Assembly: GCA_963751515.1 (NCBI GenBank)
Contig: CAVVUR010000002.1
Span: 69,888 to 133,887 of the forward strand
DNA length: 64,000 bases
Direction: 5' to 3'
Origin: an uncultured delta proteobacterium
GTDB taxonomy: Bacteria > Desulfobacterota > WTBG01
The notes beneath the pieces were generated by a model. The model was not told where the DNA came from. It saw only the letters and a program-made list of their open reading frames with translations, and made no database searches. Both the position numbers and the translations under genes were made by a program. Each line of letters begins with the position of its first letter. The first letter of the stretch is position 1. Below are positions 15,800-48,951 of this stretch, piece after piece.

Positions 15800-18700
15800 T
15801 TAAGGCACTGAACAGCCGGCGCAGTCGGCCCGCAAAAACTGCTCTTTCATGATTACCAGGTCGGCGAGGTTGACACTGCCGTCATTGTTGCCATCAGCCT
15901 CACAGGGGTTGCTGCCGCAGCCGGTGCTGAGGAACTCCCTCTTCATTATTACCAGGTCTGAAAGATCAACTTTGGCATCACAGTTACAATCTGCGTAACA
16001 CTCGCAGGCATCGCCGATCCCATTACCGGAAACATCACCCTGCCCCCGGTCACAGTAATGACCGTCTCCGCATGCAGGATCGCCGGTGCAGTCCCCCCCG
16101 GTCGCAATAACCACGCCGCTTGTTTCCTTCACGCACCTGCCCAACTCCGGGCCATTGGGAAGGTCAGGGCAGTTATCATCACAACCTTCGGTCAAGCCGC
16201 CTGAACAGAAATTATCGCCGGCGGTTCCGCTCGAGTCGCCGTCGGCCAGAACGCCGTCGCCATCCTCGTCCCCCGGATTTACACACCGGTCCAGTGGTTC
16301 ACTGCATACTAACGGGGGACAGGGATTCCCGGAGTGCTGGGAGCAACTGCCGGAGCTGCAGGTGTCGGCACCGTTGCAGAATGTACCGTCGTTACACACC
16401 GTGCCGTCGGCCCGGGGCCGGGAAATGCATTGATCAAGGGTGTCGTCACATACCCCCGCGGTGCACTGGTCGTCCAGGAACGAGCAGTCCCTGGCTGAAC
16501 CGGCCCCGCAGGTACCATCCGAACAGAAGTCTCCCACTGTGCAGTAGAGGCCATCTTCACACGGACTTCCGTTGGAGATGACGGTGTGTATGCAGGAGCC
16601 TGATCCGCTGCAGGTGTCGCTGGTACAGGAGTTGCCGTCATTGGAGCAGGGGGTTCCCGCCGGGTTATAGCAGCTGTCGGTGCCTTCCTGGCATTGCTTG
16701 CATTCCGTTTCCGGGCAGGGCGGTACGCCGGGGCGGCAATCGCCGACGGGATCGCACTGCTCGGGGCCATTGCAAAACAGGCCGTCACTGCAGAGGGCAT
16801 CGTCGGGTTCAAACCGGCAGCCGGTCAGCGGATCGCAGAAGTTATCGGTACAGCCGATACCATCATCACAGAGGGAATTGACGGGACTGTGCACGCAGGA
16901 CCTGCTGCCCTCAAGGCAGGAGTCTGCCGTGCAGTCAATGCCGTCGCTGCAATCAGGCGGACTGCCGCCATGGCAGATGCCGTCGGTTCCGCAGCTCTCC
17001 ACGCCGCTGCAGAAATATCCGTCATCGCACTCCCCGTCATCGCCGCACGCGGTGAAACAGAATTCCCCTGCCTGCACCGTGACAGCCAGCTGGAAAATTA
17101 AATCCTGCACCCCCACATTGATGGGAGTGAGCGTCCTGCACGCTCCCACCGGCGCCGAGGGTGAAACGCGATGCGCAAGGGTAAAGATGGGTCCGGCTCC
17201 GGGCTCAATGAGGTTCCCGATGAAAGAAACCAGGGACACCCGGCAGCAACCGTTGACTTCATTGGATGAACAGGTGAACCCCGCTGTGCGTTCCGTAGTC
17301 GTACAGCCGCTGCAGGTAAGGTAGTTATCTGTATCACAGATTTCCATCTGCATGCCTTTCACCTCACTGAAGGAGGTGGCAAGACTCACCTCAGCTTCGC
17401 CCCCGGCTGAGCCGGGAGGTCCCGTGCCGTCTTCCACGGTGATGGTGATCGGCTGACACTGGTCTGTCGCCTCATTGCAATCCCGGCCCCTGCAGGGGTA
17501 GTCATTGGGAAACTGAAACAGCAGATCGCAGACGCCGGTATCACAGGTTTCTGTCCCGTTGCAGAAGAGGCCGTCATTACAGTCTTCATCCTGTGTGCAG
17601 TTGCAGAGATCCTGCGACTCATTACAGACCGATCCCGATGGACAGGGATCGCCGGCGTGCAGCGAGCACATTCCGCCGCTGCAGGTGTCCTTGCCGTTGC
17701 AAAACGCCCCGTCATTACAGGAGGCGCTGTTGGGGAGCTGCACGCAGCCGCCCGACCCGTCACAGACATCGTCGGTACAGAGGTTTCCGTCATCACCGCA
17801 GCGGGTTCCGGCCGGGTCGAAACAGCTGTCGGATGCTTCCTGACAGGCGTTGCACTCCGTGCCGGGGCAGGGGGCTGTGCCGGGCTGACAGAATCCGCCC
17901 CCACAGGTCTCCAGTCCGTTGCAGAATAACCCATCGTCACAATCTTCGTCATCGGTGCAGGGGATGAGACAGATATCCTGTGCCTCGTCGCAGGTGGAAG
18001 CGGGAGCGCAGGGATCACCGCTGTGGGTGCACACATTGTTTGCCTCATCGCAACCCTCCGCGCCGTTGCAGAAGAATCCGTCGTTTCCGCAGGGAGGAGT
18101 GCCCGCACGGCAGATACCCTCGCACTGTTCTTCACCGTTGCAAAAAATACCGTCATCACAATCGGCATCGGAGGTGCATACGTAAAAGCAGAACGAACCC
18201 TTCCCGGTTATCACCGGGAGCTCGACGGGATTTCCGTTCACGTCCTCGCCCAATACCGATACCTCTTCGGGGTTGAGGTCCCTGCACCCGGAGGAGGGGG
18301 CGCCCCGCGATACCCGGTAGGCAAGCGCAAATACCGGGCCTTCGCCCGGCGGGATAGGATCGGCAGCGCCTGAATTTATGGCAATGACCCTGACGCAGCC
18401 GTTGGTCAGGTTTTCATAGAAGCAGGAAAAGCCGGCGGGGGTACGCCCGGCAGGCTGGCAGCCGGTGCAATCGAGATAGTTATCCACATCACAGACATCA
18501 ACCGAGATGGCCCGTACCGGATTGCCGGGATTGGTGAGGCTTATCTCTACGGGATTGTTGGATGAACCCGGCAGACCCGATCCCTCTCCCAGGGTGAGGA
18601 AAAGAGGAGCTTCTCCCTCCAGGCAGAGATCCGTTTCCTCATCGCAGACGAACAGGGGCGGGGTCTGACAGGGGTAGGAGCCGGCACGGCAGTTGCCGCT

Positions 18701-19867
18701 GCCGGTATCACACCGCTCCACGCCGTTGCAGAAGAGTCCGTCACTGCAGTTTGCATCGGTTGTGCAGCTCACGAAGCAGAATAATCCCGAGCCGGTTACT
18801 ACCGGGAGCTCGATGGGATTTCCGCTCACGTCCTCGCCCAATACCGATACCTCTTCGGGGTTGAGGTCCCTGCACCCGGAGGAGGGGGCGCCCCGCGATA
18901 CCCGGTAGGCAAGCGCAAATACCGGGCCTTCGCCCGGCGGGATAGGATCGGCAGCGCCTGAATTTATGGCAATGACCCTGACGCAGCCGTTGGTCAGGTT
19001 TTCATAGAAGCAGGAAAAGCCGGCGGGGGTACGCCCGGCAGGCTGGCAGCCGGTGCAATCGAGATAGTTATCCACATCACAGACATCAACCGAGATGGCC
19101 CGTACCGGATTGCCGGGATTGGTGAGGCTTATCTCTACGGGATTGTTGGATGAACCCGGCAGACCCGATCCCTCTCCCAGGGTGAGGAAAAGAGGAGCTT
19201 CTCCCTCCAGGCAGAGATCCGTTTCCTCATCGCAGACGAACAGGGGCGGGGTCTGACAGGGGTAGGAGCCGGCACGGCAGTTGCCGCTGCCGGTATCACA
19301 CCGCTCCACGCCGTTGCAGAAGAGTCCGTCACTGCAGTTTGCATCGGTTGTGCAGCTCACGAAGCAGAATAATCCCGAGCCGGTTACTACCGGGAGCTCG
19401 ATGGGATTTCCGCTCACGTCCTCGCCCAATACCAGCGCTTCTTCCAGATCCAGATCCTTGCACCCTGAGGAAGGGGCCCTCCCGGACACCGTATATGTAA
19501 GCTTAAGCACCGGGCCTTCGCCCGGCGGGATAGGATCGGCAGCGCCTGAATTTATGGCAATGATCCTGACGCAACCGTTGGTCAGGTTTTCGTAGAAGCA
19601 GGAAAAGCCGGAAGGGGTGCGCCCGGCAGGCTGGCAGCCGGTGCAGTCGAGATAGTTATCCACATCACAGACATCAACCGAGATGGCCCGTACCGGATTG
19701 CCGGGATTGGCGAGGCTTATCTCTACGGGATTGTTGGATGAGCCGGGCAGGCCCGATCCCTCTCCCGCAGTGATGGTCACCTGAGCATAGAGCCGGCATG
19801 AACATCCCCAGGCCAGGATTAAAAACATGGCTCGAATAAGAAGGTTTATCCGGGGTCCTTTTATCAT
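15800..19867 (-). CDS. Giant secreted Cys-rich scaffoldin-like protein: 4 cohesin-like modules, DGxFCNG-type Cys-rich repeats, TSP3-like Ca-binding stretch, C-terminal dockerin-like module
   Basis: Start moved to ATG 19867 (AAGGAAG RBS; signal peptide MIKGPRINLLIRAMFLILAWG). Four modules of type GEGSGLPGSSNNPVEISL..VRAISVDVCD..; many C.DG.FCNG..C units; DDNCPDLPN; C-terminal duplicated DLSDLVIMKREFL / DGSVNLADLVIMKEQFL. Confidence 0.65.
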   Translation of the reverse strand: MIKGPRINLLIRAMFLILAWGCSCRLYAQVTITAGEGSGLPGSSNNPVEISLANPGNPVRAISVDVCDVDNYLDCTGCQPAGRTPSGFSCFYENLTNGCVRIIAINSGAADPIPPGEGPVLKLTYTVSGRAPSSGCKDLDLEEALVLGEDVSGNPIELPVVTGSGLFCFVSCTTDANCSDGLFCNGVERCDTGSGNCRAGSYPCQTPPLFVCDEETDLCLEGEAPLFLTLGEGSGLPGSSNNPVEISLTNPGNPVRAISVDVCDVDNYLDCTGCQPAGRTPAGFSCFYENLTNGCVRVIAINSGAADPIPPGEGPVFALAYRVSRGAPSSGCRDLNPEEVSVLGEDVSGNPIELPVVTGSGLFCFVSCTTDANCSDGLFCNGVERCDTGSGNCRAGSYPCQTPPLFVCDEETDLCLEGEAPLFLTLGEGSGLPGSSNNPVEISLTNPGNPVRAISVDVCDVDNYLDCTGCQPAGRTPAGFSCFYENLTNGCVRVIAINSGAADPIPPGEGPVFALAYRVSRGAPSSGCRDLNPEEVSVLGEDVNGNPVELPVITGKGSFCFYVCTSDADCDDGIFCNGEEQCEGICRAGTPPCGNDGFFCNGAEGCDEANNVCTHSGDPCAPASTCDEAQDICLIPCTDDEDCDDGLFCNGLETCGGGFCQPGTAPCPGTECNACQEASDSCFDPAGTRCGDDGNLCTDDVCDGSGGCVQLPNSASCNDGAFCNGKDTCSGGMCSLHAGDPCPSGSVCNESQDLCNCTQDEDCNDGLFCNGTETCDTGVCDLLFQFPNDYPCRGRDCNEATDQCQPITITVEDGTGPPGSAGGEAEVSLATSFSEVKGMQMEICDTDNYLTCSGCTTTERTAGFTCSSNEVNGCCRVSLVSFIGNLIEPGAGPIFTLAHRVSPSAPVGACRTLTPINVGVQDLIFQLAVTVQAGEFCFTACGDDGECDDGYFCSGVESCGTDGICHGGSPPDCSDGIDCTADSCLEGSRSCVHSPVNSLCDDGIGCTDNFCDPLTGCRFEPDDALCSDGLFCNGPEQCDPVGDCRPGVPPCPETECKQCQEGTDSCYNPAGTPCSNDGNSCTSDTCSGSGSCIHTVISNGSPCEDGLYCTVGDFCSDGTCGAGSARDCSFLDDQCTAGVCDDTLDQCISRPRADGTVCNDGTFCNGADTCSSGSCSQHSGNPCPPLVCSEPLDRCVNPGDEDGDGVLADGDSSGTAGDNFCSGGLTEGCDDNCPDLPNGPELGRCVKETSGVVIATGGDCTGDPACGDGHYCDRGQGDVSGNGIGDACECYADCNCDAKVDLSDLVIMKREFLSTGCGSNPCEADGNNDGSVNLADLVIMKEQFLRADCAGCSVP
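18190..19790. repeat. 588-bp tandem repeat (~2.7 copies), in frame within the scaffoldin-like gene
   Basis: 18241-18790 and 18829-19378 look identical base for base; a third, diverged unit follows. Each 196-aa unit is a cohesin-like module plus a Cys-rich linker. Confidence 0.9.
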
Positions 19868-19880
19868 TGCGGCTTCCTTA

Positions 19881-20702
19881 TCATCTGCAGGCCTCACAAC
19901 AATTGGTCTTGCCCAGTGCCCTGTCCACAATCACCAGGAGGTCAAAGGTATCGAACGTACCATCGGTTTGGCAATTTGAGGAGTCAGAGGGGCTGCCGCA
20001 GAAAGGGGGCATTCCATTGGGTACATCTCCATGGAGTTGCTGACAGGAGTTCGCCGTCCTCCGCCCCGAAACCAGGTCAGCACCCTCCATCACGTCCAGA
20101 AGGTTAACCGTCCCATCACCGCAGGCGGTGCCTGCCGGGGAAATCCCCTGGGGGTAAATATCACCATACGAAGAAAGGCAGAACTCACCATCGGCGGTGG
20201 TTACATCAAGCGAGGCACCCGACTGATCCGATACATTCTCATGGTTAATGCTAAGTGTGGTGCATGCATCGTTCCAATTCTCCTCACCCACGGTGTAGCT
20301 GAGGGTGCACACCGGGCCGGTTCCCTCCTGGATGAGAAAACCCTGGAAAGAAATGAGCACCACCCGGGCACATCCATTATCCAGTTCACTGGCAAAGCAG
20401 GAAAAATGGGAGGCGCGGCTGGTAGTCTTGCAGCCTCCTTTATCTGCTATGGTGAGATGGTCTTCGGGATCGCACACCTCCATCTGAACGGCCTTTATTT
20501 TATTTCCCGTATTTGAGAGGTTTATATCAACCTTATTGTCTGATGAACCGGGAAGGCCTGATCCCGTGCCCGGGGCAAGCGTTACCTGAGAACAGGTGAT
20601 GGAGGGCACGCCTGCCAGGCATAGCAAGACCGTGCTAACGAATAAAAAAAGGCATCCGAATTTAGCTTGTATTCGGAGCGGCATTTCCATGCATCTATAC
20701 AC
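19881..20702 (-). CDS. Secreted cohesin-like + atypical dockerin-like protein
   Basis: Signal peptide, then the module GTGSGLPGSSDNKVDINL..IKAVQMEVCD. C-terminus GDGTVNLLDVMEGADLV ... GDVPNGMPPFCG ... DGTFDTFDLLVIVDRAL. Stop lies 13 nt before the start of the downstream giant gene. Exact start (20702 or 20684) is uncertain. Confidence 0.6.
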   Translation of the reverse strand: MYRCMEMPLRIQAKFGCLFLFVSTVLLCLAGVPSITCSQVTLAPGTGSGLPGSSDNKVDINLSNTGNKIKAVQMEVCDPEDHLTIADKGGCKTTSRASHFSCFASELDNGCARVVLISFQGFLIQEGTGPVCTLSYTVGEENWNDACTTLSINHENVSDQSGASLDVTTADGEFCLSSYGDIYPQGISPAGTACGDGTVNLLDVMEGADLVSGRRTANSCQQLHGDVPNGMPPFCGSPSDSSNCQTDGTFDTFDLLVIVDRALGKTNCCEACR

Positions 20703-28839: not shown

Positions 28840-31619
28840 ATGAGAAAGCTATCAATGATTTTGTCGGTTTTGTGTATTTCATTCCTGATTGCCTTTCCGG
28901 CCTTTCCGCTATCCTATCAGATTGATGTGGGACAGGATGGAATTGATACCGGCGGAGAGGTAGTCCTTTCTGGCCAAACAAACGTGAATATTGACCTTAT
29001 AGTCGATGACTATGACTGTCCGCCTGATGACAAACTCTTCGGCGTGCAGTCATATCTTTACATTGATGAGTCGATTGTCAAGGTAAACAGCTGCACACCG
29101 CGCACAGACCGCGGGTGTGATCTTTCGCTGAGCGGATGCACGCCTGCAGGAACCCAATGTGTACAGCGTGATCTGTAGTAACTTTCGTTTTATAACTGTT
29201 TCCCGGCGGCAGCCTGACTTTTGCCACTTTTAATGTTACGGTATTGGACAGGAACGACCGTAATGAGATTGGAGAATGACATTAGTGATCTTGATCCGGG
29301 TTATGGATCCTATGGTGATGGATATGTAGCCGACTGTACCCTGACAGGTCAAGTATTTCCTGCCGATGCAAGTCTCACGATTAATCCTTCACAAGCGGTC
29401 TGCGGCAACGGAAATCCCAGCCAGGAGAGCAGTGTGATGACGGCAATACCGTCGGTGGAGACTGCTGCAGCGCCACCTGTCAGTTCGAAGGGGCAGGCAA
29501 CCCATGCGGAGACGGCAATACCTGCAATGGCGCAGAAACCTGTAACGGTACCGGCATCTGCCAGGCCGGCGCGCCGATTAACTGCAATGACTCCAACGTC
29601 TGCACCACGGACACCTGTAATCCAGCATCCGGCTGTGTGAATACCCCGATCAGCTGCGATGACGCCAGTCTCTGCACCACGGATACTTGTAATCCAGCAT
29701 CCGGCTGCGTGAATACCCCGATCAGCTGCGATGACGCCAGTCTCTGCACCACGGACACCTGTAATCCAGCATCCGGCTGTGTGAATACCCCGATCAGCTG
29801 CGATGACGCCAGTCTCTGCACAACGGATACTTGTAATCCAGCATCCGGCTGTGTGAATACCGTCATCAGCTGCGATGACTCCAACCCCAACACCACGGAC
29901 ACTTGCGACCCGGCTACCGGCGAGTGCATCCACACTCCCCCGGGTTGCACAAATCCCTGTAGCGATAATAATGCATGTACAGAGAACGACGCGTGTGTCG
30001 GTGACGTATGCACAGGCGCTCCGGTCAATTGTGACGACGCCAGTCTCTGCACCACGGACACCTGTAATCCAGCATCCGGCTGTGTGAATACCCCGATCAG
30101 CTGCGATGACGCCAGTCTCTGCACCACGGACACCTGTAATCCAGCATCCGGCTGCGTGAATACCCCGATCAGCTGCGATGACGCCAGTCTCTGCACCACG
30201 GACACCTGTAATCCAGCATCCGGCTGTGTGAATACCCCGATCAGCTGCGATGACGCCAGTCTCTGCACCACGGATACTTGTAATCCAGCATCCGGCTGCG
30301 TGAATACCGTCATCAGCTGCGATGACTCCAACCCCAACACCACGGACACCTGCGACCCGGCTACCGGCGAGTGCATCCACACTCCTCCCCCGGGCTGTAC
30401 AGATCCCTGTAGTGATAATAATGCATGTACAGAGAACGACGTGTGTGTCGGTGACGTATGCACAGGCGCTCCGGTCAATTGTGACGACGCCAGTCTCTGC
30501 ACCACGGACACCTGTAATCCAGCATCCGGCTGTGTGAATACCCCGATCAGCTGCGATGACGCCAGTCTCTGCACCACGGACACCTGTAATCCAGCATCCG
30601 GCTGCGTGAATACCCCGATCAGCTGCGACGACGCCAATCCCTGCTCTACGGACACCTGCAACCCGGCTACCGGTTGCATGAATACACCAATCAATTGCGA
30701 CGACGGCGACCCCAATACCACGGATACCTGCGATCCGGCTACCGGTGAGTGCATCCACACCCCCCCGGGTTGCATAAATCCCTGTAGCGATAATAATGCG
30801 TGTACAGAGAACGACGTTTGTGTGGGTGACGTATGCACAGGAACTCCAGTCAATTGCAATGACTCCAACCTTTGCACCACGGATACATGCAACCCCGTAA
30901 CCGGCTGCGTGTATACCCCGATCAGTTGTGATGACGGAGTAAGCTGCACCGACGATACCTGCAACCCGGCTACCGGCTGTTCGAACACCCCCAATAACGC
31001 CAATTGCCAGGATGACGGTCTCTATTGCAACGGTGATGAGGTTTGCGACCCGATTAATGATTGTTTTTCAACCGGCAATCCCTGTCCGGATGGTTCCGTT
31101 TGCGATGAGATAAACGATGAATGCGATCCGGAAGCAGGCTTAACCGTTAAGGTTGATATCAAACCCGGGTCCTGTCCGAATCCGCTCAACCTAAAGAGTC
31201 GAGGCGTTGTATCGATTGCTATACTCGGGTCAATGGATTTTAAGGTGAATGATATCGATCCCATGACCGTTATGATAGGCAGAGCAAGCGTTCCAGGGAA
31301 GGTAGCTCCCATTCGCTACAGCTATGAAGATGTTGCCACGCCTTATGAAGGTGAACTCTGCGGATGTAATCGTTGCTCTGGCGATGGGTACAAGGACCTG
31401 GTTCTTAAATTCGAAATCGAGAAACTGGTTGATACCTTAATGCTTGGAGAGGCGGCCGGGCAAACAGTCCCGCTCATCATAACCGGCAATCTTAAGGAAA
31501 GAAAGGGTGGCACAGCATTCTCGGGCCAGGACTGCATGAAAATCCTTAAGAATACTTTAAAATTAAAAGATTTGATTGACCAGTTCAAGAAAGAGAAGGA
31601 TAACCGCGGCAAGAAGTAG
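28840..31619 (+). pseudogene. Secreted Cys-rich repeat protein (N-terminal beta-sandwich-like 'YxCxPxDxLFG' domain, CGNG..GEQCDDGN unit, ~15 CDDxxxCTxDxCNPxxGC repeats), at least 3 frameshifts near the 5' end
   Basis: ORFs 28840-29178, 29221-29640 and 29637-31619 align consecutively to the paralogues at 31911 and 43579. Signal peptide MRKLSMILSVLCISFLIAFPAF. Frameshifts at ~29150, ~29200-29250 and ~29415. Confidence 0.6.
29581..30960. repeat. Nested tandem repeats: 72-bp (24-aa) units organised in a 447-bp higher-order repeat
   Basis: The unit TGCGATGACGCCAGTCTCTGCACCACGGACACCTGTAATCCAGCATCCGGCTGTGTGAATACCCCGATCAGC recurs near-identically. Blocks start at 29581, 30028 and 30475 (period 447). 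Confidence 0.9.
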
Positions 31620-31910
31620 GGATATGCATGAGTAAGTGAAAAGCAAGTTTAAGAAGTTCAGCATCGGGGCTGATAGCAGAAGCTAGCAGCCCTTAGTTTA
31701 TTAATACAACCTGAACAAATAGACTTATCGCCTGCATAGAGGGCTGAAGCTGAATTTAATATGGAATTCACAGTTATCGAACAAGCCCTTTTTTGTTTGT
31801 TCAATTGATAAAATTACTTGCACAAATTGCTCATTTGAGATAAAAGCACATTGTTGAAAACAGGCTATGTCTTTATAAGTTTAATTTTAAAACTTTGAAA
31901 AGGAGGAAGT

Positions 31911-34900
31911 ATGAAAAAGCTATCATTGATTTTATCGGTTCTGTTAATCTCAACCCTCTTTGCCATTCCAGCCTTTCCGTTATCTTATGAAATTGATGTC
32001 GGCCAGAATGGGACCTTTGAAACAACTGGTGGCAATAATGATGGGACCATCGATCTTAATGTTAATGATTCTGTAACCATGGACATTTATGTGGACGGAT
32101 ATTCCTGTGCGCCAAATGATCAGCTGTTTGGAGTACAAGCATACATGTTTGTAGATGAATCACAGGTTTCGGTTAGCGGTTTCCCTTTTAGTGTCGCAAA
32201 TGGCGGGCCTTTTGATAATGGTTTGAGTGGATTTATACAGCAAGAAGCAAATGTGTATCTTTTGTCCGCCTCCAACTTTACTTTCGTAACTGTCACCGGT
32301 GGGAAACAAAAATTTGCCACGATGACTTTATCATGTATTTCAAGCGGTACGTTTACTCTGGCTATAGCAAATGACCTTACCTCTTATGGGTACTCATCGT
32401 ATTCCGACGGATTCGTTGCGGATTGTGGCTTAGTCTATTTGTTTCCCACTACTGCGTTATTTACAATTAATCAGAACCAGCCGACCGTCTTTCCGGAAGT
32501 CGCAACCACCTGTCCGGTAGTGGCAACGACCTGCCCGGCAGTAGCGACGACCTGCCCAGAAGCGGCAACCAGCTGTCCGGCAGATCCGACGAACTGTCCG
32601 ATTGCAGCCACCAGCTGTCCGGCAGATGCGACCTTCTGTCCTGAAATACCAACGGTATGTCCTGAAGGAGTGACTACCTGCCCAGAAATACCAACGACCT
32701 GTCCCACAGGTGCGACTTTCTGCCCAGAAAATCCAACCTTCTGCCCAGAAAATCCAACCTTCTGCCCTGAAATAGCAACCGTCTGTCCTGAATCAGTAAC
32801 CGCTTGTCCAATAGTGGCGACGGTTTGTCCTGAAGGCGTGACCCTCTGTCCTGCAAATCCAACCTTCTGCCCTGAAGGTGTAACTACCTGCCCCGAAATA
32901 CCAACTGCCTGTCCTGCAGTTGCAACCGTCTGTCCTGAATCAGTAACCAATTGTCCGGTGCAGGCAACCACTTGTCCGATAGAGGCAACTGTTTGTCCCG
33001 CAGGTGCGACCTTCTGTCCCGAAATACCAACTGTATGCCCCGAGGCGGCAACGATCTGCCCAGAAATATCAACGACCTGTCCCACAGGTGCGACTTTCTG
33101 CCCTGAAAATCCGACCTTCTGTCCTGAAATACCAACAACATGCCCTGAGACAGCAACTGTCTGTCCCGTAGAGGCAACGGTGTGTCCGGAGGAAGCAACG
33201 GTTTGTCCGGTAGAGGCAACAGTGTGCCCGGAGGAAGCAACTGTCTGTCCTATAGAGACAACAGTTTGTCCAGTAGGCGCGACCTTCTGCCCTGTAACTG
33301 AAACTGCCTGTCCTGAAACGGAAACGGTGTGCCCCGCCGCTGATTGTCCGTTAGCTTATAAGTTCGATTTTGATGGTGACAGGTACTGGGATACAGAATG
33401 GGAATTAACTCCTCCTGACCCACCTGCTGCCGGCGAGACAGTTCAAGTTGACATCTGGCTGAATGGATATGTGTGTCCGCCGAGTGACGATCTTTTTGGC
33501 ATACAGTTATACTTTTTGTATGATCCAAATGCCATGCAGGTGATCCAGGCCTATCCTAATAATAGCGATCACGGAGGACCTTTCGATCCGAGCCTAAGTG
33601 GATTTCTACCGCAGGCGCCCGGAATATATCAATTGATTGCCGCAAGTTTCGATTTTGTCTCAGTGATTGGTAACAGGATTTTAGTGGGAACGATTGAACT
33701 GCAGTGTACAGAGGCCGGCAGTAACATTGCGATTGTGGCTGCAGACGACCTGGGATTTGATCCATATAGAGATGGATTTGTTGCAGACTGCGAATCTGTT
33801 TCGCAATTTCCCATCGAAGCTATTGCAACAATATACCAACTGTGCAACTCAGATGCAGACTGCGATGACAGTAACCAGTGCACCACGGAATATTGCGACA
33901 CAGAAACAGACAGATGTGTTTATACTGTATTGGAAAATGACACACCCTGTGATGACGGTGTGTCCTGCAATGACCCTGATATTTGTGTTGACGGACAATG
34001 CGTGTTTCAGGGTGACCCCTGCTGCGAGATTGCCATCGACCCCAAAACTGCCGAAGCGTATTACGGCGAGACCATCCAATTTACGGTCTCTGAGAAAGGA
34101 GACTGCAACCCGACGCCTTGTTACACCTGGGAAGTGCTGGCCTCGGGCGGCACGGGGAACACCACAGAGAGATACAGCTGGGCGGCTGCGGCTGAGGCAG
34201 GCACAGGCAACACGGCGGGCGGTGGTGTGATAGACGAGAATGGCCTCTATACTGCCGGAGATTCTGTAGGTACCGACATCGTTAGGGTAACCGACAACTG
34301 CAGCACTGGCGCACCCTACGATGAGGCGGAAGTGACTGTTACCGGACCGCCTCCAACAACTACAACAACAAGCGTAAGACCGACAACCACCACTACGAGT
34401 ATAGAAACAGAATGTGATGAGGATATAGACTGTACTGATGAATTGTACTGCAACGGCGCCGAGACATGTGTAGGTGGAATTTGCCAGGACGGGACGCCGG
34501 TTGCCTGCACTGATGACGGACAATTCTGCAATGGCACGGAGAGCTGCAGCGAGCAGGCTGATGCGTGTGTCAGTTCCGGCAATCCCTGCGGGACCACACA
34601 ATCCTGCAATGAGACAACCGATGCATGCGAGCAGCTTGCCCGGATTGACGCGCTTTTGCCTCCTTCCTGGTATCAGTCAAGGTGGATACCCTTGATCAGG
34701 CCGCTGCGCATTGTCGGATCAGGCACCAGTTTTCAGGCTCGTGAATCAAAAGTTACCTTTGAGCCGAACATTGCCGTATTTCCGTTCTTTTCGAGAGTCG
34801 TGGATGAAGAAAATATCCTCATCTGGACCTATATCATGCCGCAGTGGCTGACCAGGCCGCTCGAGGGACCTGTACAGGTGACAGTCACTACCGGTTCTGA

Positions 34901-34973
34901 AGTAGTATCTGCCGACTGGGATATCAATTTGCTCCCCTTCCCACTTGATCAAGAAGGGGCGGATCTGGAGTAA
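31911..34973 (+). CDS. Secreted modular Cys-rich protein: two 'YxCxPxDxLFG' beta-sandwich-like domains, 40 PxxxTxC heptads, Cys-rich DG..C.. repeats, Ig-like region, Thr-rich linker
   Basis: 1020 aa; AAGGAGG RBS; signal peptide MKKLSLILSVLLISTLFAIPAF; paralogous to the N-termini of 28840 and 43579. Confidence 0.6.
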   Translation: MKKLSLILSVLLISTLFAIPAFPLSYEIDVGQNGTFETTGGNNDGTIDLNVNDSVTMDIYVDGYSCAPNDQLFGVQAYMFVDESQVSVSGFPFSVANGGPFDNGLSGFIQQEANVYLLSASNFTFVTVTGGKQKFATMTLSCISSGTFTLAIANDLTSYGYSSYSDGFVADCGLVYLFPTTALFTINQNQPTVFPEVATTCPVVATTCPAVATTCPEAATSCPADPTNCPIAATSCPADATFCPEIPTVCPEGVTTCPEIPTTCPTGATFCPENPTFCPENPTFCPEIATVCPESVTACPIVATVCPEGVTLCPANPTFCPEGVTTCPEIPTACPAVATVCPESVTNCPVQATTCPIEATVCPAGATFCPEIPTVCPEAATICPEISTTCPTGATFCPENPTFCPEIPTTCPETATVCPVEATVCPEEATVCPVEATVCPEEATVCPIETTVCPVGATFCPVTETACPETETVCPAADCPLAYKFDFDGDRYWDTEWELTPPDPPAAGETVQVDIWLNGYVCPPSDDLFGIQLYFLYDPNAMQVIQAYPNNSDHGGPFDPSLSGFLPQAPGIYQLIAASFDFVSVIGNRILVGTIELQCTEAGSNIAIVAADDLGFDPYRDGFVADCESVSQFPIEAIATIYQLCNSDADCDDSNQCTTEYCDTETDRCVYTVLENDTPCDDGVSCNDPDICVDGQCVFQGDPCCEIAIDPKTAEAYYGETIQFTVSEKGDCNPTPCYTWEVLASGGTGNTTERYSWAAAAEAGTGNTAGGGVIDENGLYTAGDSVGTDIVRVTDNCSTGAPYDEAEVTVTGPPPTTTTTSVRPTTTTTSIETECDEDIDCTDELYCNGAETCVGGICQDGTPVACTDDGQFCNGTESCSEQADACVSSGNPCGTTQSCNETTDACEQLARIDALLPPSWYQSRWIPLIRPLRIVGSGTSFQARESKVTFEPNIAVFPFFSRVVDEENILIWTYIMPQWLTRPLEGPVQVTVTTGSEVVSADWDINLLPFPLDQEGADLE
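32493..33332. repeat. 40 uninterrupted 21-bp (heptad) coding repeats, consensus P-[EV]-x-[AP]-T-x-C
   Basis: Counted in the translation from PEVATTC, PVVATTC ... to PETETVC; the register never slips. Confidence 0.9.
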
Positions 34974-35628: not shown

Positions 35629-35706
<78 letters not shown>

Positions 35707-42510: not shown

Positions 42511-43458
42511 TTAATAAATCTGGCCCGATAAGCAATAATCACAGCAGTTCATCTTATCCAGGGCCATGTCAATAATCACCAGAAGATCATATATGTCAAT
42601 GTTGCCGTTACGCTCACAGTTGGCAGCGCCGGGAGGATTTCCGCAGTAAGGCGGCATGCCGTTTGGAACGTCCCCATTATTACGCTGACATGCGGTAGGC
42701 GCCTGCAGACCCAGGACGATATCCACCATCTCCAAAATATCAAACAGATTGACGTCACCGTCGCCACAGGGAGCGCATCCCGGATCGAGACAGTCCTGCG
42801 GAAAGATATCGCCGCATACATTAAAGCACACCTCACCGGTATCCGTGCAGGCACACAGGGCTTCGTTGTACTGATCGGCTACCTGCACGTTCGTTGCCTT
42901 AAGGCATACGCAGTCAGGGCATGCTTCCGGATTTATCTGGTCATAAATCACCGTCGCTATCGGCCCCTCGCCCGGTGCGATCAGCCCGGCCGGCGAATAG
43001 AGCACCACCCTGCAGATGCCGTCAGGCTGTTCAGCTGCGATGCAGGTGAACCCCAAGGCCCGGTCCGGATCAGGGAAGCACCCGGTACAGGCAAGGTTGT
43101 CCTCCCCGTCCTGGCATTCGCCGATCTGAAAATCAAGCGCCTTTACCATGTGATCATTGTTGGTGAGACTTATGGCTGCCTCCAGGGAATCCGTATCAGG
43201 AGAAACAGTTGTTTCTCCTATGTCGAGGATGACCTTTCCGATCTGTATTGCAACCGCATCACGGCCACCATTCAATGGGTCAGTAGCGGTTACCGTACAT
43301 TCAACTACTTCTGCTATGTAGTTGCAGGTATCGCCAACGGTCAGCCGGGCACTGCAGTCACCGGTAGAAACGATAGTTGCCGCATCCGGCTTGGTGCACT
43401 TCACCGTCCATACAGGATAGGATATGCCCTCACAATCAGTACAAGTGTAGAAATCCAC
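42511..43458 (-). CDS. Cohesin-like + atypical dockerin-like Cys-rich protein segment; no signal peptide of its own, and probably the C-terminal part of one gene with 43579-44409
   Basis: Module SLEAAISLTNNDHMVKALDFQIGECQD...; C-terminus GDGDVNLFDILEMVDIVLG ... GDVPNGMPPYCG ... NGNIDIYDLLVIIDMAL. The same frame stays open upstream as far as the TGA at 43579-43581. Confidence 0.6.
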   Translation of the reverse strand: MDFYTCTDCEGISYPVWTVKCTKPDAATIVSTGDCSARLTVGDTCNYIAEVVECTVTATDPLNGGRDAVAIQIGKVILDIGETTVSPDTDSLEAAISLTNNDHMVKALDFQIGECQDGEDNLACTGCFPDPDRALGFTCIAAEQPDGICRVVLYSPAGLIAPGEGPIATVIYDQINPEACPDCVCLKATNVQVADQYNEALCACTDTGEVCFNVCGDIFPQDCLDPGCAPCGDGDVNLFDILEMVDIVLGLQAPTACQRNNGDVPNGMPPYCGNPPGAANCERNGNIDIYDLLVIIDMALDKMNCCDYCLSGQIY

Positions 43459-43546
43459 TATTTCACCGCAGGTCAGGGCGAGACCCCGTCTCCCCGGCCG
43501 GTTGTAAGGTGGGTCATCCAGGGGTGGTGGATCCTCGCAGCCATGT

Positions 43547-43565
43547 TCTACCCCTCCGAGGTAGA
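43547..43565 (-). promoter_or_regulatory. Hairpin 13 nt downstream of the in-frame UGA (SECIS-like candidate)
   Basis: Minus-strand RNA is UGA-N13-UCUACCUC-GGA-GGGGUAGA: an 8-bp stem (one G.U pair) with a G-rich triloop. Confidence 0.3.
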
Positions 43566-43578
43566 TCTCAATATCACA

Positions 43579-44409
43579 TCACGTGCATCCCTTAATTTCG
43601 ACCAGGGCACAGCACTGGGCCGGTTCGCCGGCATCACCCGTGTTAGCGGTATCGGTGGCACACACCGTGCAGGTCTCACCAATGAAGGTTTCCGGTACGC
43701 TCAAGAGACCCGTAACCGGATTGATGGTTGCTAAAGCACAATCTTCGGTCCAGACATAGGCCGGCGGGTTGTCACAGTAATTATTCGAGGGAGCGGCATT
43801 AAAATCCTGGGTGACCGTCGACCCGGTAACTGGCTGCACGACAGCCGTAGCCGGCGTTACCGCACATTCACAGGGCGGGATGAACTGGTTAACTGCCACC
43901 ACGGCATCGGTCGGGAAAATGCTGGCCAGATTGCAGTCCGCGATGAATCCGTCGTTGTAAGGACCGCCGATGTCGTTAGCCATAACGAGATTGAAATCCG
44001 TATCGTTATCACAGGTCAGTGTCGCGCTACCCATCTTGTACTTGTTGCCGGTAACCGTGATGAAGGTAAAGTTACTGCAGATCAGTGAAAGCACGCCCGG
44101 TTCCGGAGAGGTACATCCGCTCAGGCTGCCGTCGCACTGCGCTGCCGTGTTGGGAGAACAAGCGCTGATGGTAGCAGCTGTGTAGTCATAACTAATGTAA
44201 GGCGACACACCAAACAATTTATCATTAGGCGCACAGGAGTATGCTTCAATGTAAAAACCAAGGGTGACGGAGTCGCCAACCTCAATTGAAAGGGCGCTAT
44301 CACCGGTCCCATTTCCGTTCACGTCGACCGCATAGTTTACCGCCGATGCCGGACTGATCATGAGACCGACCATCAACAGCATACCGCAAAAAATTGAGAA
44401 CGGTTTCAT
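43579..44409 (-). CDS. Secreted Cys-rich protein, N-terminal 'YxCxPxDxLFG' domain + Ig-like region; ends at a UGA that is in frame with the next ORF
   Basis: Signal peptide MKPFSIFCGMLLMVGLMISPASA; paralogous to the N-termini of 28840 and 31911. Confidence 0.6.
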   Translation of the reverse strand: MKPFSIFCGMLLMVGLMISPASAVNYAVDVNGNGTGDSALSIEVGDSVTLGFYIEAYSCAPNDKLFGVSPYISYDYTAATISACSPNTAAQCDGSLSGCTSPEPGVLSLICSNFTFITVTGNKYKMGSATLTCDNDTDFNLVMANDIGGPYNDGFIADCNLASIFPTDAVVAVNQFIPPCECAVTPATAVVQPVTGSTVTQDFNAAPSNNYCDNPPAYVWTEDCALATINPVTGLLSVPETFIGETCTVCATDTANTGDAGEPAQCCALVEIKGCT

Positions 44410-44528: not shown

Positions 44529-46201
44529 CTAATGCACCACCGGCAGCAGCACGTGCGAGGGATAGGTGCTGTTATAGTAGATGGTGTTGGCGGCGGTTAT
44601 CATGTTCTCCTTGTCAAAGGTATCCCCCCCGGTGTTGGGATTGACGTCAAACCGGGGGTTGTTGCTGCTGGATACGGCAAGGCGGAGGCGGTGGCCGGTG
44701 TTGACGATGATGCTGGTGGCCCAGAGATCAATCTCAAACCGGTACACGGTCCCCGGCGTCATAAGCTCGGGGGTGGTGAAGGTGTTGCGATAGCGGGCTC
44801 GAATAATGCCGTCGGCTATGAGCATGGATTGACCTTCAGGGTAGACGTCAGTGAGCTTGGCGGTAAAATCGGTGTCAAGGGCATCGGATGAAGCATATAA
44901 AATAACTTTCAGGTCACCGGTCACTTCCAGCGGCGCCTCAAGGATCGCGGTTGAAAAGACCACCACATCCGGGCGGCCTTCAAGATCCGACTGGTCATAA
45001 GGTCCTGCTGCTATGGTGAGATCGAGATTTGTGCCGCCCCTCGAAGGAACGGGATCTTCGGGGTCGAAGCGATAGGAGGAAGAAAAAGCTCCCCCGGCGG
45101 CCGCATCGGGCGAGAGGACACCCTCCGGGTGCAGGTAGTAGGCGGTCGGGGGCACCTCAAACGGCGGCCAGGTTGGCGCGTACCTCCACTCGTGGCCCGG
45201 CGCCTCATAATCCCGGGCATCTCCCATGACGTAGTAGTAAACGGGATCCGTTTCCATAATGCCTGTATCTTCACCTTTGAGCCAGTAGTCAATCCAACTT
45301 TCGAACAACTCATTCTGATCGAGGACCGAGCTCGGCGGGAAGGTAATCTCTCCCTGCTCCCTTGAACTGTATCCTGAATGGGTCCAGGGGCCGATGACAA
45401 GCCTCTGGTTTCCTCGTGCGCCCCGGCCCCCTCATCTTGACGGGTGAGAAATCCATTGATGGCCCCCTTCAGTGCCATGTCGTACCAGCCTCCCACGTGC
45501 AGCGCCGGCGCCCTGACCACGTTTGCCCTGATTTCAACGTTTCCCAAATCCCAGAAGGAGTCGTAGGAGGGGTGCATTTTATAGGTTTCGAGAAAAAAGC
45601 TTGCCCCCTGCCGGTCCAACCAGCCGGTAACCTGGGCCTGGTTAAAGGCGCCGCCCTGAAAAACAATCTGCGAGTAATTGTCTGTGGGCGTAAAGCGGAT
45701 GAACTGACAGGCAAGGCCGGGCGGCGCTGTTCCCGCCATCAGATGCTGGGTAATGCCTTCAGCGGACTGACCGGCGGTTCCTATCTTCCCGTTGCACCAG
45801 GTCTGTCTGCGTATCCAGGCCACCGTATCGTATCCGTCCTGGTTGTCTCCCCAGCCATCGTCCAGGAAAGGCCGGTACTCACCCTCGGAGTCAAAGCGTC
45901 CCCGCACATCCTGTATGACAATGGCGTACTCGTCAGCGAACCTGAACAGCGACTCGCTTTCCTCCCTGCCGTAGGGTGTCCTGATCAGGAGCACCGGCCA
46001 GGCGCCCCTGCCGTTGGGCGGCAGGTATACATCAGTGGCCAGCTTGACCTTGTCTCTCATGGGAACCATGTAGGTTTCGCTGACCGAACAGCCGGACAGC
46101 ACAAGGCCGAGCGCAAGAACCAGCAGGGGCACAAAGCAGTTCAGAAACGTCCATGTTTTTGGCAGATAGGAAGATCCGAATGTGTCAGTAGTGTTTCGCA
46201 T
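44529..46201 (-). pseudogene. CocE/NonD-family (X-Pro dipeptidyl-peptidase S15-like) hydrolase, lipoprotein signal, one frameshift (~45420)
   Basis: LVLSGC lipobox and LLIRTPYGRE. The two ORFs 45011-46201 and 44529-45308 join as ...RGNQRLVIGPWTHSG... in the second frame. Confidence 0.65.

Positions 46202-47530: not shown

Positions 47531-48951
<1,421 letters not shown>

Follow-up and report, generated by a model that had tools for sequence, protein, structure and literature searches.

Three genes in a 64,000-nt stretch of the genome of an uncultured delta proteobacterium (contig CAVVUR010000002.1 of assembly GCA_963751515.1, positions 69,888 to 133,887; the whole stretch is called the window here) encode secreted Cys-rich modular proteins that are headed by the same domain. 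The genes are named after the window positions 28840, 31911, and 43579. The predicted structure of the domain and sequence intermediates among its relatives indicate that it is probably a divergent cohesin β-sandwich belonging to a non-cellulosomal lineage of dockerin sockets. New is a distinct, rare lineage of such cohesin-like modules with its own Cys pattern, together with conserved in-frame UGA codons in some of its genes. Some family members, the 43579 gene among them, appear to need recoding of a UGA codon for production of the full-length protein, and the inserted amino acid is most likely selenocysteine.

Four copies of the domain in the window

A MAFFT alignment of the three gene products contains four copies of a domain of approximately 165–170 aa, two of them in the 31911 protein. 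The pairwise identity among the copies (the three N-terminal segments and residues 471–650 of the 31911 protein) is 33–45%. When a hidden Markov model (HMM) of the family was run against the six-frame translation of the window, exactly these four copies were found and otherwise no match below E = 1. The independent E-values were 1.3e-64 and 5.6e-71 for modules 1 and 2 of the 31911 protein and 5.2e-58 for the 43579 copy; the 28840 copy was matched in two pieces (1.2e-27 and 4.4e-08). Both the domain common to the three genes and the second, internal copy in the 31911 protein (residues 479–646) had been proposed in the original prediction, made by eye from the sequence, and both were recovered here. 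The signal peptides which it had placed in front of the three proteins are likewise visible: the N-termini MRKLSMILSVLCISFLIAFPAFP, MKKLSLILSVLLISTLFAIPAFP, and MKPFSIFCGMLLMVGLMISPASA (28840, 31911, and 43579, respectively), read by eye, have the n-h-c look of Sec-type signal peptides. The landmark motifs listed earlier are present in the alignment with small deviations and read Y.(I/F/V)D, Y.C.P.D.LFG, LSG(C/F), (N/S)F.F..V.G, (N/D)D(L/I), and DG(F/Y)(V/I)ADC.

The domain is probably a divergent cohesin

The original prediction could not assign the domain to a family by eye, and scans of the window proteins with Pfam and NCBIfam also found no domain family at threshold on its copies. A structure of residues 22–198 of the 31911 protein was predicted with AlphaFold2 (AF2) from a 29-sequence family alignment. 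The model has eleven strands, a predicted local distance difference test score (pLDDT) of 93.2, and a predicted template modelling score (pTM) of 0.88. In a Foldseek search against the PDB, ranks 1–22 among the 50 matches listed are all cohesins with a probability of 1.00. The best match is 2vo8, the cohesin of a Clostridium perfringens GH33 enzyme (E 4e-7, template modelling (TM) score 0.81, root mean square deviation 2.9 Å), and further cohesins in the list include 6kgf, 1g1k, 2vn5, 1aoh, and 1anu. Adhesin and pilin sandwiches (AgI/II C-domains, pilins) appear lower in the list, among ranks 23–50, with TM scores below those of the cohesins. Glycosidase chains appear at low TM only (ranks 33, 37, 44, and 47). 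The earlier impression of a cohesin-like sandwich was therefore borne out. The carbohydrate-binding type that had been offered as its alternative was not, as there is no carbohydrate-binding module (CBM) among the 50 listed Foldseek matches and no CBM family in the Pfam and NCBIfam matches.

At the sequence level the connection is made by intermediates. Two family members pass the gathering cutoff of the Pfam family Cohesin (PF00963; 24.1 bits), namely P0057 with 36.6 bits and P0072 with 42.3 bits, and sub-threshold matches were found in P0026 (E 0.0018), P0064, and the internal copy of the 31911 protein (E 0.088). Altogether 9 of 67 family members match PF00963 at E ≤ 0.01. These matches cover the domain's own residues in a constant register. 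For P0057 the best PDB sequence matches are four cohesins of C. thermocellum CipA. The domain had been described as novel-looking, and Foldseek on the N-terminal domain of the 31911 protein had been suggested as a check, where an unambiguous match to a family already well characterised would speak against novelty; the known family was matched at the fold level by Foldseek and at the sequence level through the intermediates that pass PF00963.

Several points weigh against the assignment as a cohesin socket. No window copy reaches the Pfam threshold; the best one, module 2 of the 31911 protein, has a weak match over residues 497–555 (E 0.088, 13.4 bits versus 24.1). Sequence searches of the PDB with family profiles built from 3 and 29 sequences gave no match. 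Comparing the family by hhalign with the modules of the giant protein at the first locus of the window (15800–20702), and with the module behind the UGA codon of the 43579 frame, revealed no relation. The domain is approximately 30 residues longer than canonical cohesins. A cell-anchoring module is not recognisable in the 28840 and 31911 proteins, whose host is Gram-negative, and gene 28840 may be a pseudogene. With window copies below the Pfam threshold and no PDB or profile match, the homology to cohesins rests on structure and on the intermediates.

A rare lineage with its own Cys pattern

An exhaustive profile search of 1.84 billion (1.84e9) cluster representatives yielded 88 relatives. 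The majority have the domain start around residue 21, immediately after the signal peptide, and its placement is always at the mature N-terminus or, as a second copy, after a spacer. The genome to which the window belongs (2.96 Mb in 18 contigs, 74% complete) contributes 14 matches on 7 contigs, corresponding to about 13 copies. No relative turned up when 185,579 species genomes were scanned twice with patterns, and a metagenome scan found three loci only, two of which stem from sister samples of the Joint Genome Institute (JGI) project that yielded the contig L013. The family as a whole is rare, with a restricted environmental distribution.

A fixed Cys pattern had been ascribed to the domain. 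This holds for one near-universal pair (C66 of Y-x-C-x-P and C172 of A-D-C, 31911 numbering): of 29 sequences, 26 have the former and 27 the latter, and two have lost both together. The remaining cysteines are not fixed and fall into two optional pairs whose members co-occur (10/9 and 4/4 of the 29 sequences); the 43579 copy carries both. The pairs presumably form disulfides.

Pfam domains in 67 relatives include Dockerin_1 in 12, TSP_3 in 10, and Cohesin in 9. Among the paralogues in the same genome, L008 and L009 consist of signal peptide, module, and dockerin, with a very short linker in L008. L006 combines dockerins, Lcl_C-like domains, the module, and heptad repeats of the kind found in the 31911 protein; L005 combines the module with Cys-rich repeats, a beta-helix, and TSP3. 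The dockerin associated with the family is of a Cys-bracketed, type-I-like kind (C-N-G-D-x-K-V-D-L-x-D-L-V-I-M-K), and the 1376-aa protein of the first locus (15800–19930) ends in a Cys-bracketed dockerin of the same flavour. One metagenomic protein, P0016 (864 aa), holds an M4 thermolysin-type protease, a galactose-binding-like domain, the cohesin-like module, TSP3, and a dockerin in a single chain, so that the module is also carried by enzymes.

Proposed role of the module

Canonical cohesins bind their cognate dockerins in a Ca-dependent manner through the 8-3-6-5 strand face. The most likely role of the present module is to receive dockerins, as a socket, in a non-cellulosomal scaffold at the surface of a sulfate-reducer-type bacterium. 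We infer dockerin binding, the identity of the partners, and the scaffold role as follows. Once exported by the Sec route, the module would be a socket to which dockerin-bearing proteins dock in a Ca-dependent manner. Because they combine sockets with long Cys-rich spacers and have no dockerin, the 28840 protein (one socket) and the 31911 protein (two sockets) would be scaffolds or receptors. The plug-in partners would be the dockerin-bearing family members, cargo such as beta-helix, M4 protease, Lcl_C, and TSP3 proteins, and the 1376-aa protein of the first locus; a disulfide-rich extracellular matrix or adhesion network would result.

We considered two alternatives to this role. First, the cohesin fold could have been repurposed, with a glycan, a partner-cell surface, or a mineral or metal surface as its ligand, or it could be a rigid spacer only; in that event the dockerins found alongside it would have their partners in more canonical cohesins of the same genome, for example at the first locus (15800–19930). 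The high divergence of the lineage, which has no Pfam match at threshold and shows no relation to the first-locus modules in the profile comparison, agrees with such a change of function, as do its own invariant motifs and disulfides and the β-sandwich adhesin domains at ranks 23–50 of the Foldseek list. Moreover, a module and a dockerin on a linker as short as that of L008 need not bind each other. Nevertheless we regard repurposing as unlikely, since genuine cohesins fill the top 22 structural ranks and outscore the adhesin domains in TM, the domain is often fused to dockerins, and neither CBMs nor lectins are among the top matches. Second, a new family that is unrelated to cohesins and converged on a common β-sandwich would explain the mere 8–17% identity to PDB cohesins in structural alignments and the missing PDB sequence match, but it is highly improbable because graded intermediates pass PF00963 over the domain residues with the register kept, members carry dockerins, the functional partner module, and the Foldseek matches are specific to cohesins.

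If the domain is a cohesin socket, it can be compared with three known systems. With the type I cohesins of clostridial cellulosome scaffoldins (CipA, 1anu/1aoh; C. cellulolyticum, 1g1k/2vn5; C. acetobutylicum CaCohA2, 6kgf) it shares the β-sandwich fold (target-normalised TM 0.6–0.8), the co-occurrence with dockerins, and the arrangement in secreted modular proteins as one or several copies parted by linkers. In contrast to them it has only 8–17% sequence identity, approximately 170 instead of 140 residues, scores below the Pfam threshold, and a disulfide-type Cys pair; furthermore it always occupies the mature N-terminus, carbohydrate-active enzymes and CBMs are not found nearby, and the host is a Gram-negative, sulfate-reducer-type anaerobe. 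The C. perfringens GH33/GH84 cohesins (2vo8, 2jh2, and 2w1n) are the best structural matches, 2vo8 being at rank 1, and they have a non-cellulosic use in the assembly of secreted proteins, as is proposed for the present module. The modules of this Firmicute are internal to glycosidases of a toxin complex, whereas here they head enzyme-free, Cys-rich, scaffold-like proteins.

Of the same organism type are the cohesin/dockerin “adhesins” that have been reported for syntrophic sulfate-reducing bacteria (SRB) and anaerobic methanotrophic archaea (ANME) (Murali et al. 2023, PMC10553843; Chadwick et al. 2022, PMC9012536). These proteins and the first locus resemble the present lineage in the proposed enzyme-free plug-and-socket role in matrix formation or adhesion to a partner, and the scaffold network proposed here would fit the adhesin role put forward for SRB and ANME (PMC10553843). 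However, the SRB/ANME adhesins were detected by domain-database annotation, which misses the present lineage, and the first-locus modules differ from it in that a profile-level relation is not detectable.

The 43579 gene is the front part of a longer frame with one in-frame UGA

Two of the three genes as originally called need correction. Gene 28840 proved not to be one open frame, and “gene 43579” (276 aa) is only the front of a 632-codon frame that runs from 44409 to 42511 on the minus strand with the TGA at 43579–43581 as its sole interruption (case 1). The frame is colinear over its whole length with an intact paralogue of 631/664 aa (P0006/L004) that lies on a different contig of this genome. 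The part behind the UGA has 56 homologues; it has no Pfam match, no signal peptide, and no convincing start of its own. The relatives P0093, P0099, and P0103, which seemed to start behind the UGA, were rejected because they are mis-called: their upstream frames are open and have signal peptides of their own.

The codon is also TGA in L013 (JGI) and in the syntenic ENA contig L014, that is, in three independent assemblies; upstream of the TGA, L013 has 86% nucleotide identity to the window. Downstream of the TGA the ratio of nonsynonymous to synonymous differences (pN/pS) is 0.33 over 135 codons (p = 0.01) and 0.30 over 338 codons (p = 3e-5), which equals the ratio upstream. The sequence beyond the UGA is under purifying selection.

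A hairpin follows the UGA. Its 21-nt stretch with an 8-bp stem shows no difference among the three orthologues, in contrast to the variable flanks, and no such hairpin is present in the TGA-less paralogue. With respect to this hairpin the UGA ranks in the top 1.1% of the gene's codons. The 65-nt segment as a whole is no more stable than shuffled sequences (z 0.84).

Further in-frame UGA codons and their hairpins

Four more family genes contain one in-frame TGA each with a colinear open frame beyond it (cases 2–5, Table 1). L011 of the same genome and its orthologue L024 (case 2) have the TGA codon and the final stop in common, and 202 of 232 amino acids are identical. The interrupting stop is TGA in all five cases, and in 4 of 5 a Cys lies within 1–3 residues of it. 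In cases 2–5 the UGA is located inside the cohesin-like sandwich, so that a truncated product could not fold. The TGA is shared by three assemblies in case 1 and by two in case 2, including JGI contigs with 6–14% nucleotide divergence; a conserved in-frame TGA in at least two sequences, which is used as a selenoprotein criterion (PMC1976440), is thus found in both. Over cases 1 and 2 the downstream pN/pS is 0.30–0.49 (p = 3e-5, 0.01, and 0.04), with no further stops or indels. A further candidate, P0046/L027, was discarded as a plain frameshift with a TAA stop. Gene callers split the UGA genes in two (P0002/P0091, P0045, P0039/P0090, P0055, and P0041).

The four hairpins have stems of 6–8 bp and loops of 3–4 nt that begin with G[G/U], and the loop starts 21–24 nt after the UGA. 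A model of the bacterial selenocysteine insertion sequence (SECIS) asks for a loop of 3–9 nt with G in its first two nucleotides and a stem of 4–16 bp, located 16–37 nt from the UGA, with a minimum free energy (MFE) of at most −7.5 kcal/mol (PMC13188914). Its geometry fits 4 of the 5 UGA cases; L028 (case 5) fails. RNAfold gave local-segment MFE values of −13.4, −10.3, −11.6, and −9.8 kcal/mol for the four cases; the energies of the hairpins only are −9.0, −7.2, −10.2, and −5.0 kcal/mol, to be read against the model limit of −7.5 kcal/mol.

As a control, 4.2% of the ordinary codons in these genes precede a hairpin that passes stricter criteria. With the published criteria, the TGA ranks among all codons of its own gene at 0.011, 0.057, 0.048, 0.065, and 0.227. 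Fisher's combined p is 0.0011 for the five cases and 0.024 for the three that were examined after the hypothesis had been fixed. The stem sequences are unrelated and the protein segments encoded there differ, so the hairpin goes with the UGA and not with a position in the protein.

Selenocysteine and the alternatives

We lean towards the reading that the UGA next to Cys (GC[T/P]-U-C, GCG-U-G, CVT-U, and W-U-C, where U stands for the UGA) is decoded as selenocysteine by means of a SECIS within the open reading frame (ORF); the sequences would then represent a new class of exported selenoproteins. The archetype of a bacterial selenoprotein gene with a SECIS inside the ORF is E. coli fdhF. The present genes resemble such genes in the UGA that is conserved between orthologues, in the spacing of the hairpin, and in the neighbouring Cys (CxU, UC, CxxU). 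They differ from bacterial selenoproteins in that homologues with Cys in place of selenocysteine are missing and the position of the UGA varies among paralogues. In addition, their products are exported and structural and not cytoplasmic or periplasmic oxidoreductases.

Cys-aligned homologues are the main selenoprotein criterion (at least two, in more than 50% of the pairs; Zhang & Gladyshev, PMC1976440), and neither case 1 nor case 2 has them in this number. In case 1 about 27 homologues have T/Q/A/S/L/I/G/D/V/K at this column, and Cys is seen only in P0124 (“GCPCC”) and possibly in P0097; the gene of P0124 is frame-broken, and it was therefore dropped as an informative Cys homologue. In case 2 the intact homologues have K or N. 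The UGA codons of paralogues are at non-homologous columns, one case (L028) is without a hairpin, and there is no SECIS match in Rfam. Within the 64-kb window nothing relevant to the selenocysteine machinery (selA, selB, selC, or selD) was found, and listing the ORFs with TGA read as U revealed no known selenoprotein gene there. The only Rfam match at gathering threshold in the window is a tRNA gene at 35632–35706 on the minus strand; no tRNA-Sec or SECIS family is among the matches. General decoding of TGA as a sense codon was discarded, because most long ORFs are unchanged or only a few codons longer when TGA is read as U.

In the first alternative the TGA codons are nonsense mutations or consensus errors and the genes are pseudogenes or encode truncated products. 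It would gain from the many broken genes in the assemblies involved, from the absence of Cys at the UGA columns of intact homologues (P0124 and possibly P0097 excepted), and from the UGA position that differs among paralogues together with the lack of a hairpin in L028. We consider this alternative possible and the less probable of the two, since the TGA is kept in three and two assemblies in cases 1 and 2, respectively, and the frame downstream is constrained and free of extra stops and indels. Furthermore, no stop other than TGA occurs among the five; the UGA of four cases is in the middle of the sandwich, where truncation gives no folded product; and SECIS-like hairpins follow 4 of the 5 UGAs with a combined p of about 0.001.

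According to the second alternative the UGA is read through by a mechanism that does not involve selenocysteine, for example hairpin-stimulated near-cognate decoding, and short and long isoforms are made. Coding constraint downstream and conserved hairpins fit any recoding mechanism. In case 1, where the UGA is at a module boundary, a short form (the socket) and a long form (socket plus dockerin) would both be sensible. For the four mid-domain cases, however, the short isoform would be half a sandwich that is unable to fold. The geometry of the hairpins and their G-first loops match specifically the bacterial SECIS model (PMC13188914), and a Cys 1–3 residues from the UGA, as in 4 of 5 cases, is typical of selenoproteins. 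Such read-through therefore seems improbable, and decoding as selenocysteine is the reading that we prefer.

Architecture of the 31911 and 28840 proteins

The coordinates of the features are compiled in Table 1. In the 1020-aa 31911 protein the two cohesin-like modules are separated by the heptad spacer, which is uninterrupted and carries one Cys per heptad. The orthologue P0005 keeps the order of the parts with only about 16 heptads, compared with forty in the 31911 protein, so the length of the spacer is variable. The C-terminal half comprises Cys-rich repeats (residues 647–705), a putative immunoglobulin (Ig)-like part (706–812), a PT linker, a second Cys-rich part (832–907), and a sandwich domain (908–1020). 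The Ig-like segments of the original prediction are not backed by any profile match in the window proteins. The C-terminal sandwich, with the motifs W-Y-Q-S-R-W ... V-T-T-G-S-E ... L-L-P-F, is common to five other family members (P0005, P0009, P0033, P0034, and P0086) and ends several family proteins that have no dockerins. Its AF2 model (pLDDT 69) is a generic Ig-like sandwich without a PDB match below 1e-3. Possibly this domain is another kind of anchoring or partner module.

A 516-aa Beta_helix_4 protein that ends in a Cys-bracketed double dockerin is encoded 1.5 kb upstream of the two-module orthologue P0005 (L018/L019, 1313–2863 of contig JAOQIC010002539.1, GCA_025490955.1), where it adjoins a gene for a TonB-dependent receptor. 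The two proteins are a candidate cargo/scaffold pair in one locus.

The CGNG..GEQCDDGN unit noted earlier is genuine and belongs to TIGR02232 (23.7 bits versus a cutoff of 20.8). In the 28840 protein it is followed by approximately 15 Cys repeats of 24 aa of the Dicty_CTDC type (Pfam, 15 stretches, E 1.3e-84), which are encoded by 72-nt and 378-nt tandem repeats. At 29574–30936 on the plus strand near-identical 72-nt repeats (84–93% matches) are arranged in a 378-nt higher-order repeat, which suggests a recent expansion or gene conversion; the region is also prone to mis-assembly.

The cohesin-like domain of gene 28840 can be read only with four changes of frame, three +1 and one −1, all within 280 nt and each at a homopolymer of 2–3 nt. 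The other 2.2 kb of the gene are a single open frame. Two other window genes on the minus strand, one of the Peptidase_S15/PepX_C type (44529–46201) and one gltD-like (Fer4_20/Pyr_redox_2, 47670–48951), are likewise split over two overlapping frames. Both are whole (504 and 589 aa, respectively) in the syntenic contig L014 from another sample, which points to indel errors in the window assembly and not to decay. The frameshifts of gene 28840 may also be assembly errors.

Table 1. Positions of the features of the three window genes and of the further in-frame UGA codons
Feature	Position	Strand	Basis or remark
Gene 28840, frame-broken	28840..31619	+	three-frame translation, reconstruction
Cohesin-like domain of gene 28840	about 28906-29400	+	after signal peptide; reconstruction and HMM
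TIGR02232 Cys-rich repeat of gene 28840	CGNG at 29401-29412	+	profile match, 23.7 bits
Four frameshift sites of gene 28840	about 29146-29159, 29198-29209, 29244-29256, 29410-29422	+	within or just after cohesin-like domain
C-terminal domain of gene 28840	from about 31137	+	
Signal peptide of 31911 protein	31911..31976	+	read directly from sequence
Cohesin-like module 1 of 31911 (residues 23-195)	31977..32495	+	HMM, AF2, Foldseek
Spacer of forty phased 7-residue repeats CP-E-x-x-T-x	32502..33335	+	40 CP motifs; 21/42-nt tandem repeats
Cohesin-like module 2 of 31911 (residues 479-646)	33345..33848	+	HMM
C-terminal half of gene 31911	33849..34970	+	Cys-rich, putative Ig-like, PT linker, Cys-rich, sandwich
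113-aa “WYQSRW” C-terminal domain of 31911	34632-34970	+	residues 908-1020
Signal peptide, start of 43579 frame	44341-44409	-	
Cohesin-like module of 43579 (residues 24-186)	43852-44340	-	HMM
In-frame TGA, codon 277 (case 1)	43579..43581	-	context G-C-T-U-C; candidate selenocysteine codon
Hairpin UCUACCUC-GGA-GGGGUAGA (case 1)	43547..43565	-	starts 13 nt after UGA; loop starts 21 nt after
Post-UGA part of 43579 frame	42511..43578	-	Cys-rich module and atypical dockerin-like C-terminus (GDVNLFDILEMVD ... NGNIDIYDLLVIID); called ORF 42511-43458
In-frame TGA, L011 (case 2; orthologue L024)	own genome, G000:C18, about 64.5-65.3 kb		GCG-U-G; hairpin 7 bp, GGUC loop
In-frame TGA, L025 (case 3)			CVT-U-R; hairpin 8 bp, GUUC loop
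In-frame TGA, L026 (case 4)			NFW-U-C; hairpin 6 bp, GUU loop
In-frame TGA, L028 (case 5)			AAK-U-G; no hairpin

Implications

Cohesin–dockerin pairs are well understood in cellulosomes; many non-cellulosomal cases are uncharacterised and are counted by way of domain-database matches. As the databases miss the lineage described here, surveys of this kind count too few of the sockets in the system. In its own genome the lineage may be the missing partner of the “orphan” Cys-bracketed dockerins.

The pattern of a UGA followed by a hairpin is unexpected for both the cohesin and the selenoprotein field, and in the literature searched no paper links selenoproteins with cohesin or dockerin modules; the proteins may be the first cohesin–dockerin selenoproteins. 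If this is true, it would be a case beyond the reach of the standard searches for selenocysteine/Cys pairs, in genes that gene callers systematically split, and an exported, structural family of non-oxidoreductases would be added to the prokaryotic selenoproteome. A selenol or a selenenylsulfide would then be situated within an extracellular plug-and-socket scaffold of sulfate-reducer-type bacteria, where it could lock the assembling matrix, either in a redox-switchable way or covalently (Se-S), or could be a binding site for metals or minerals.

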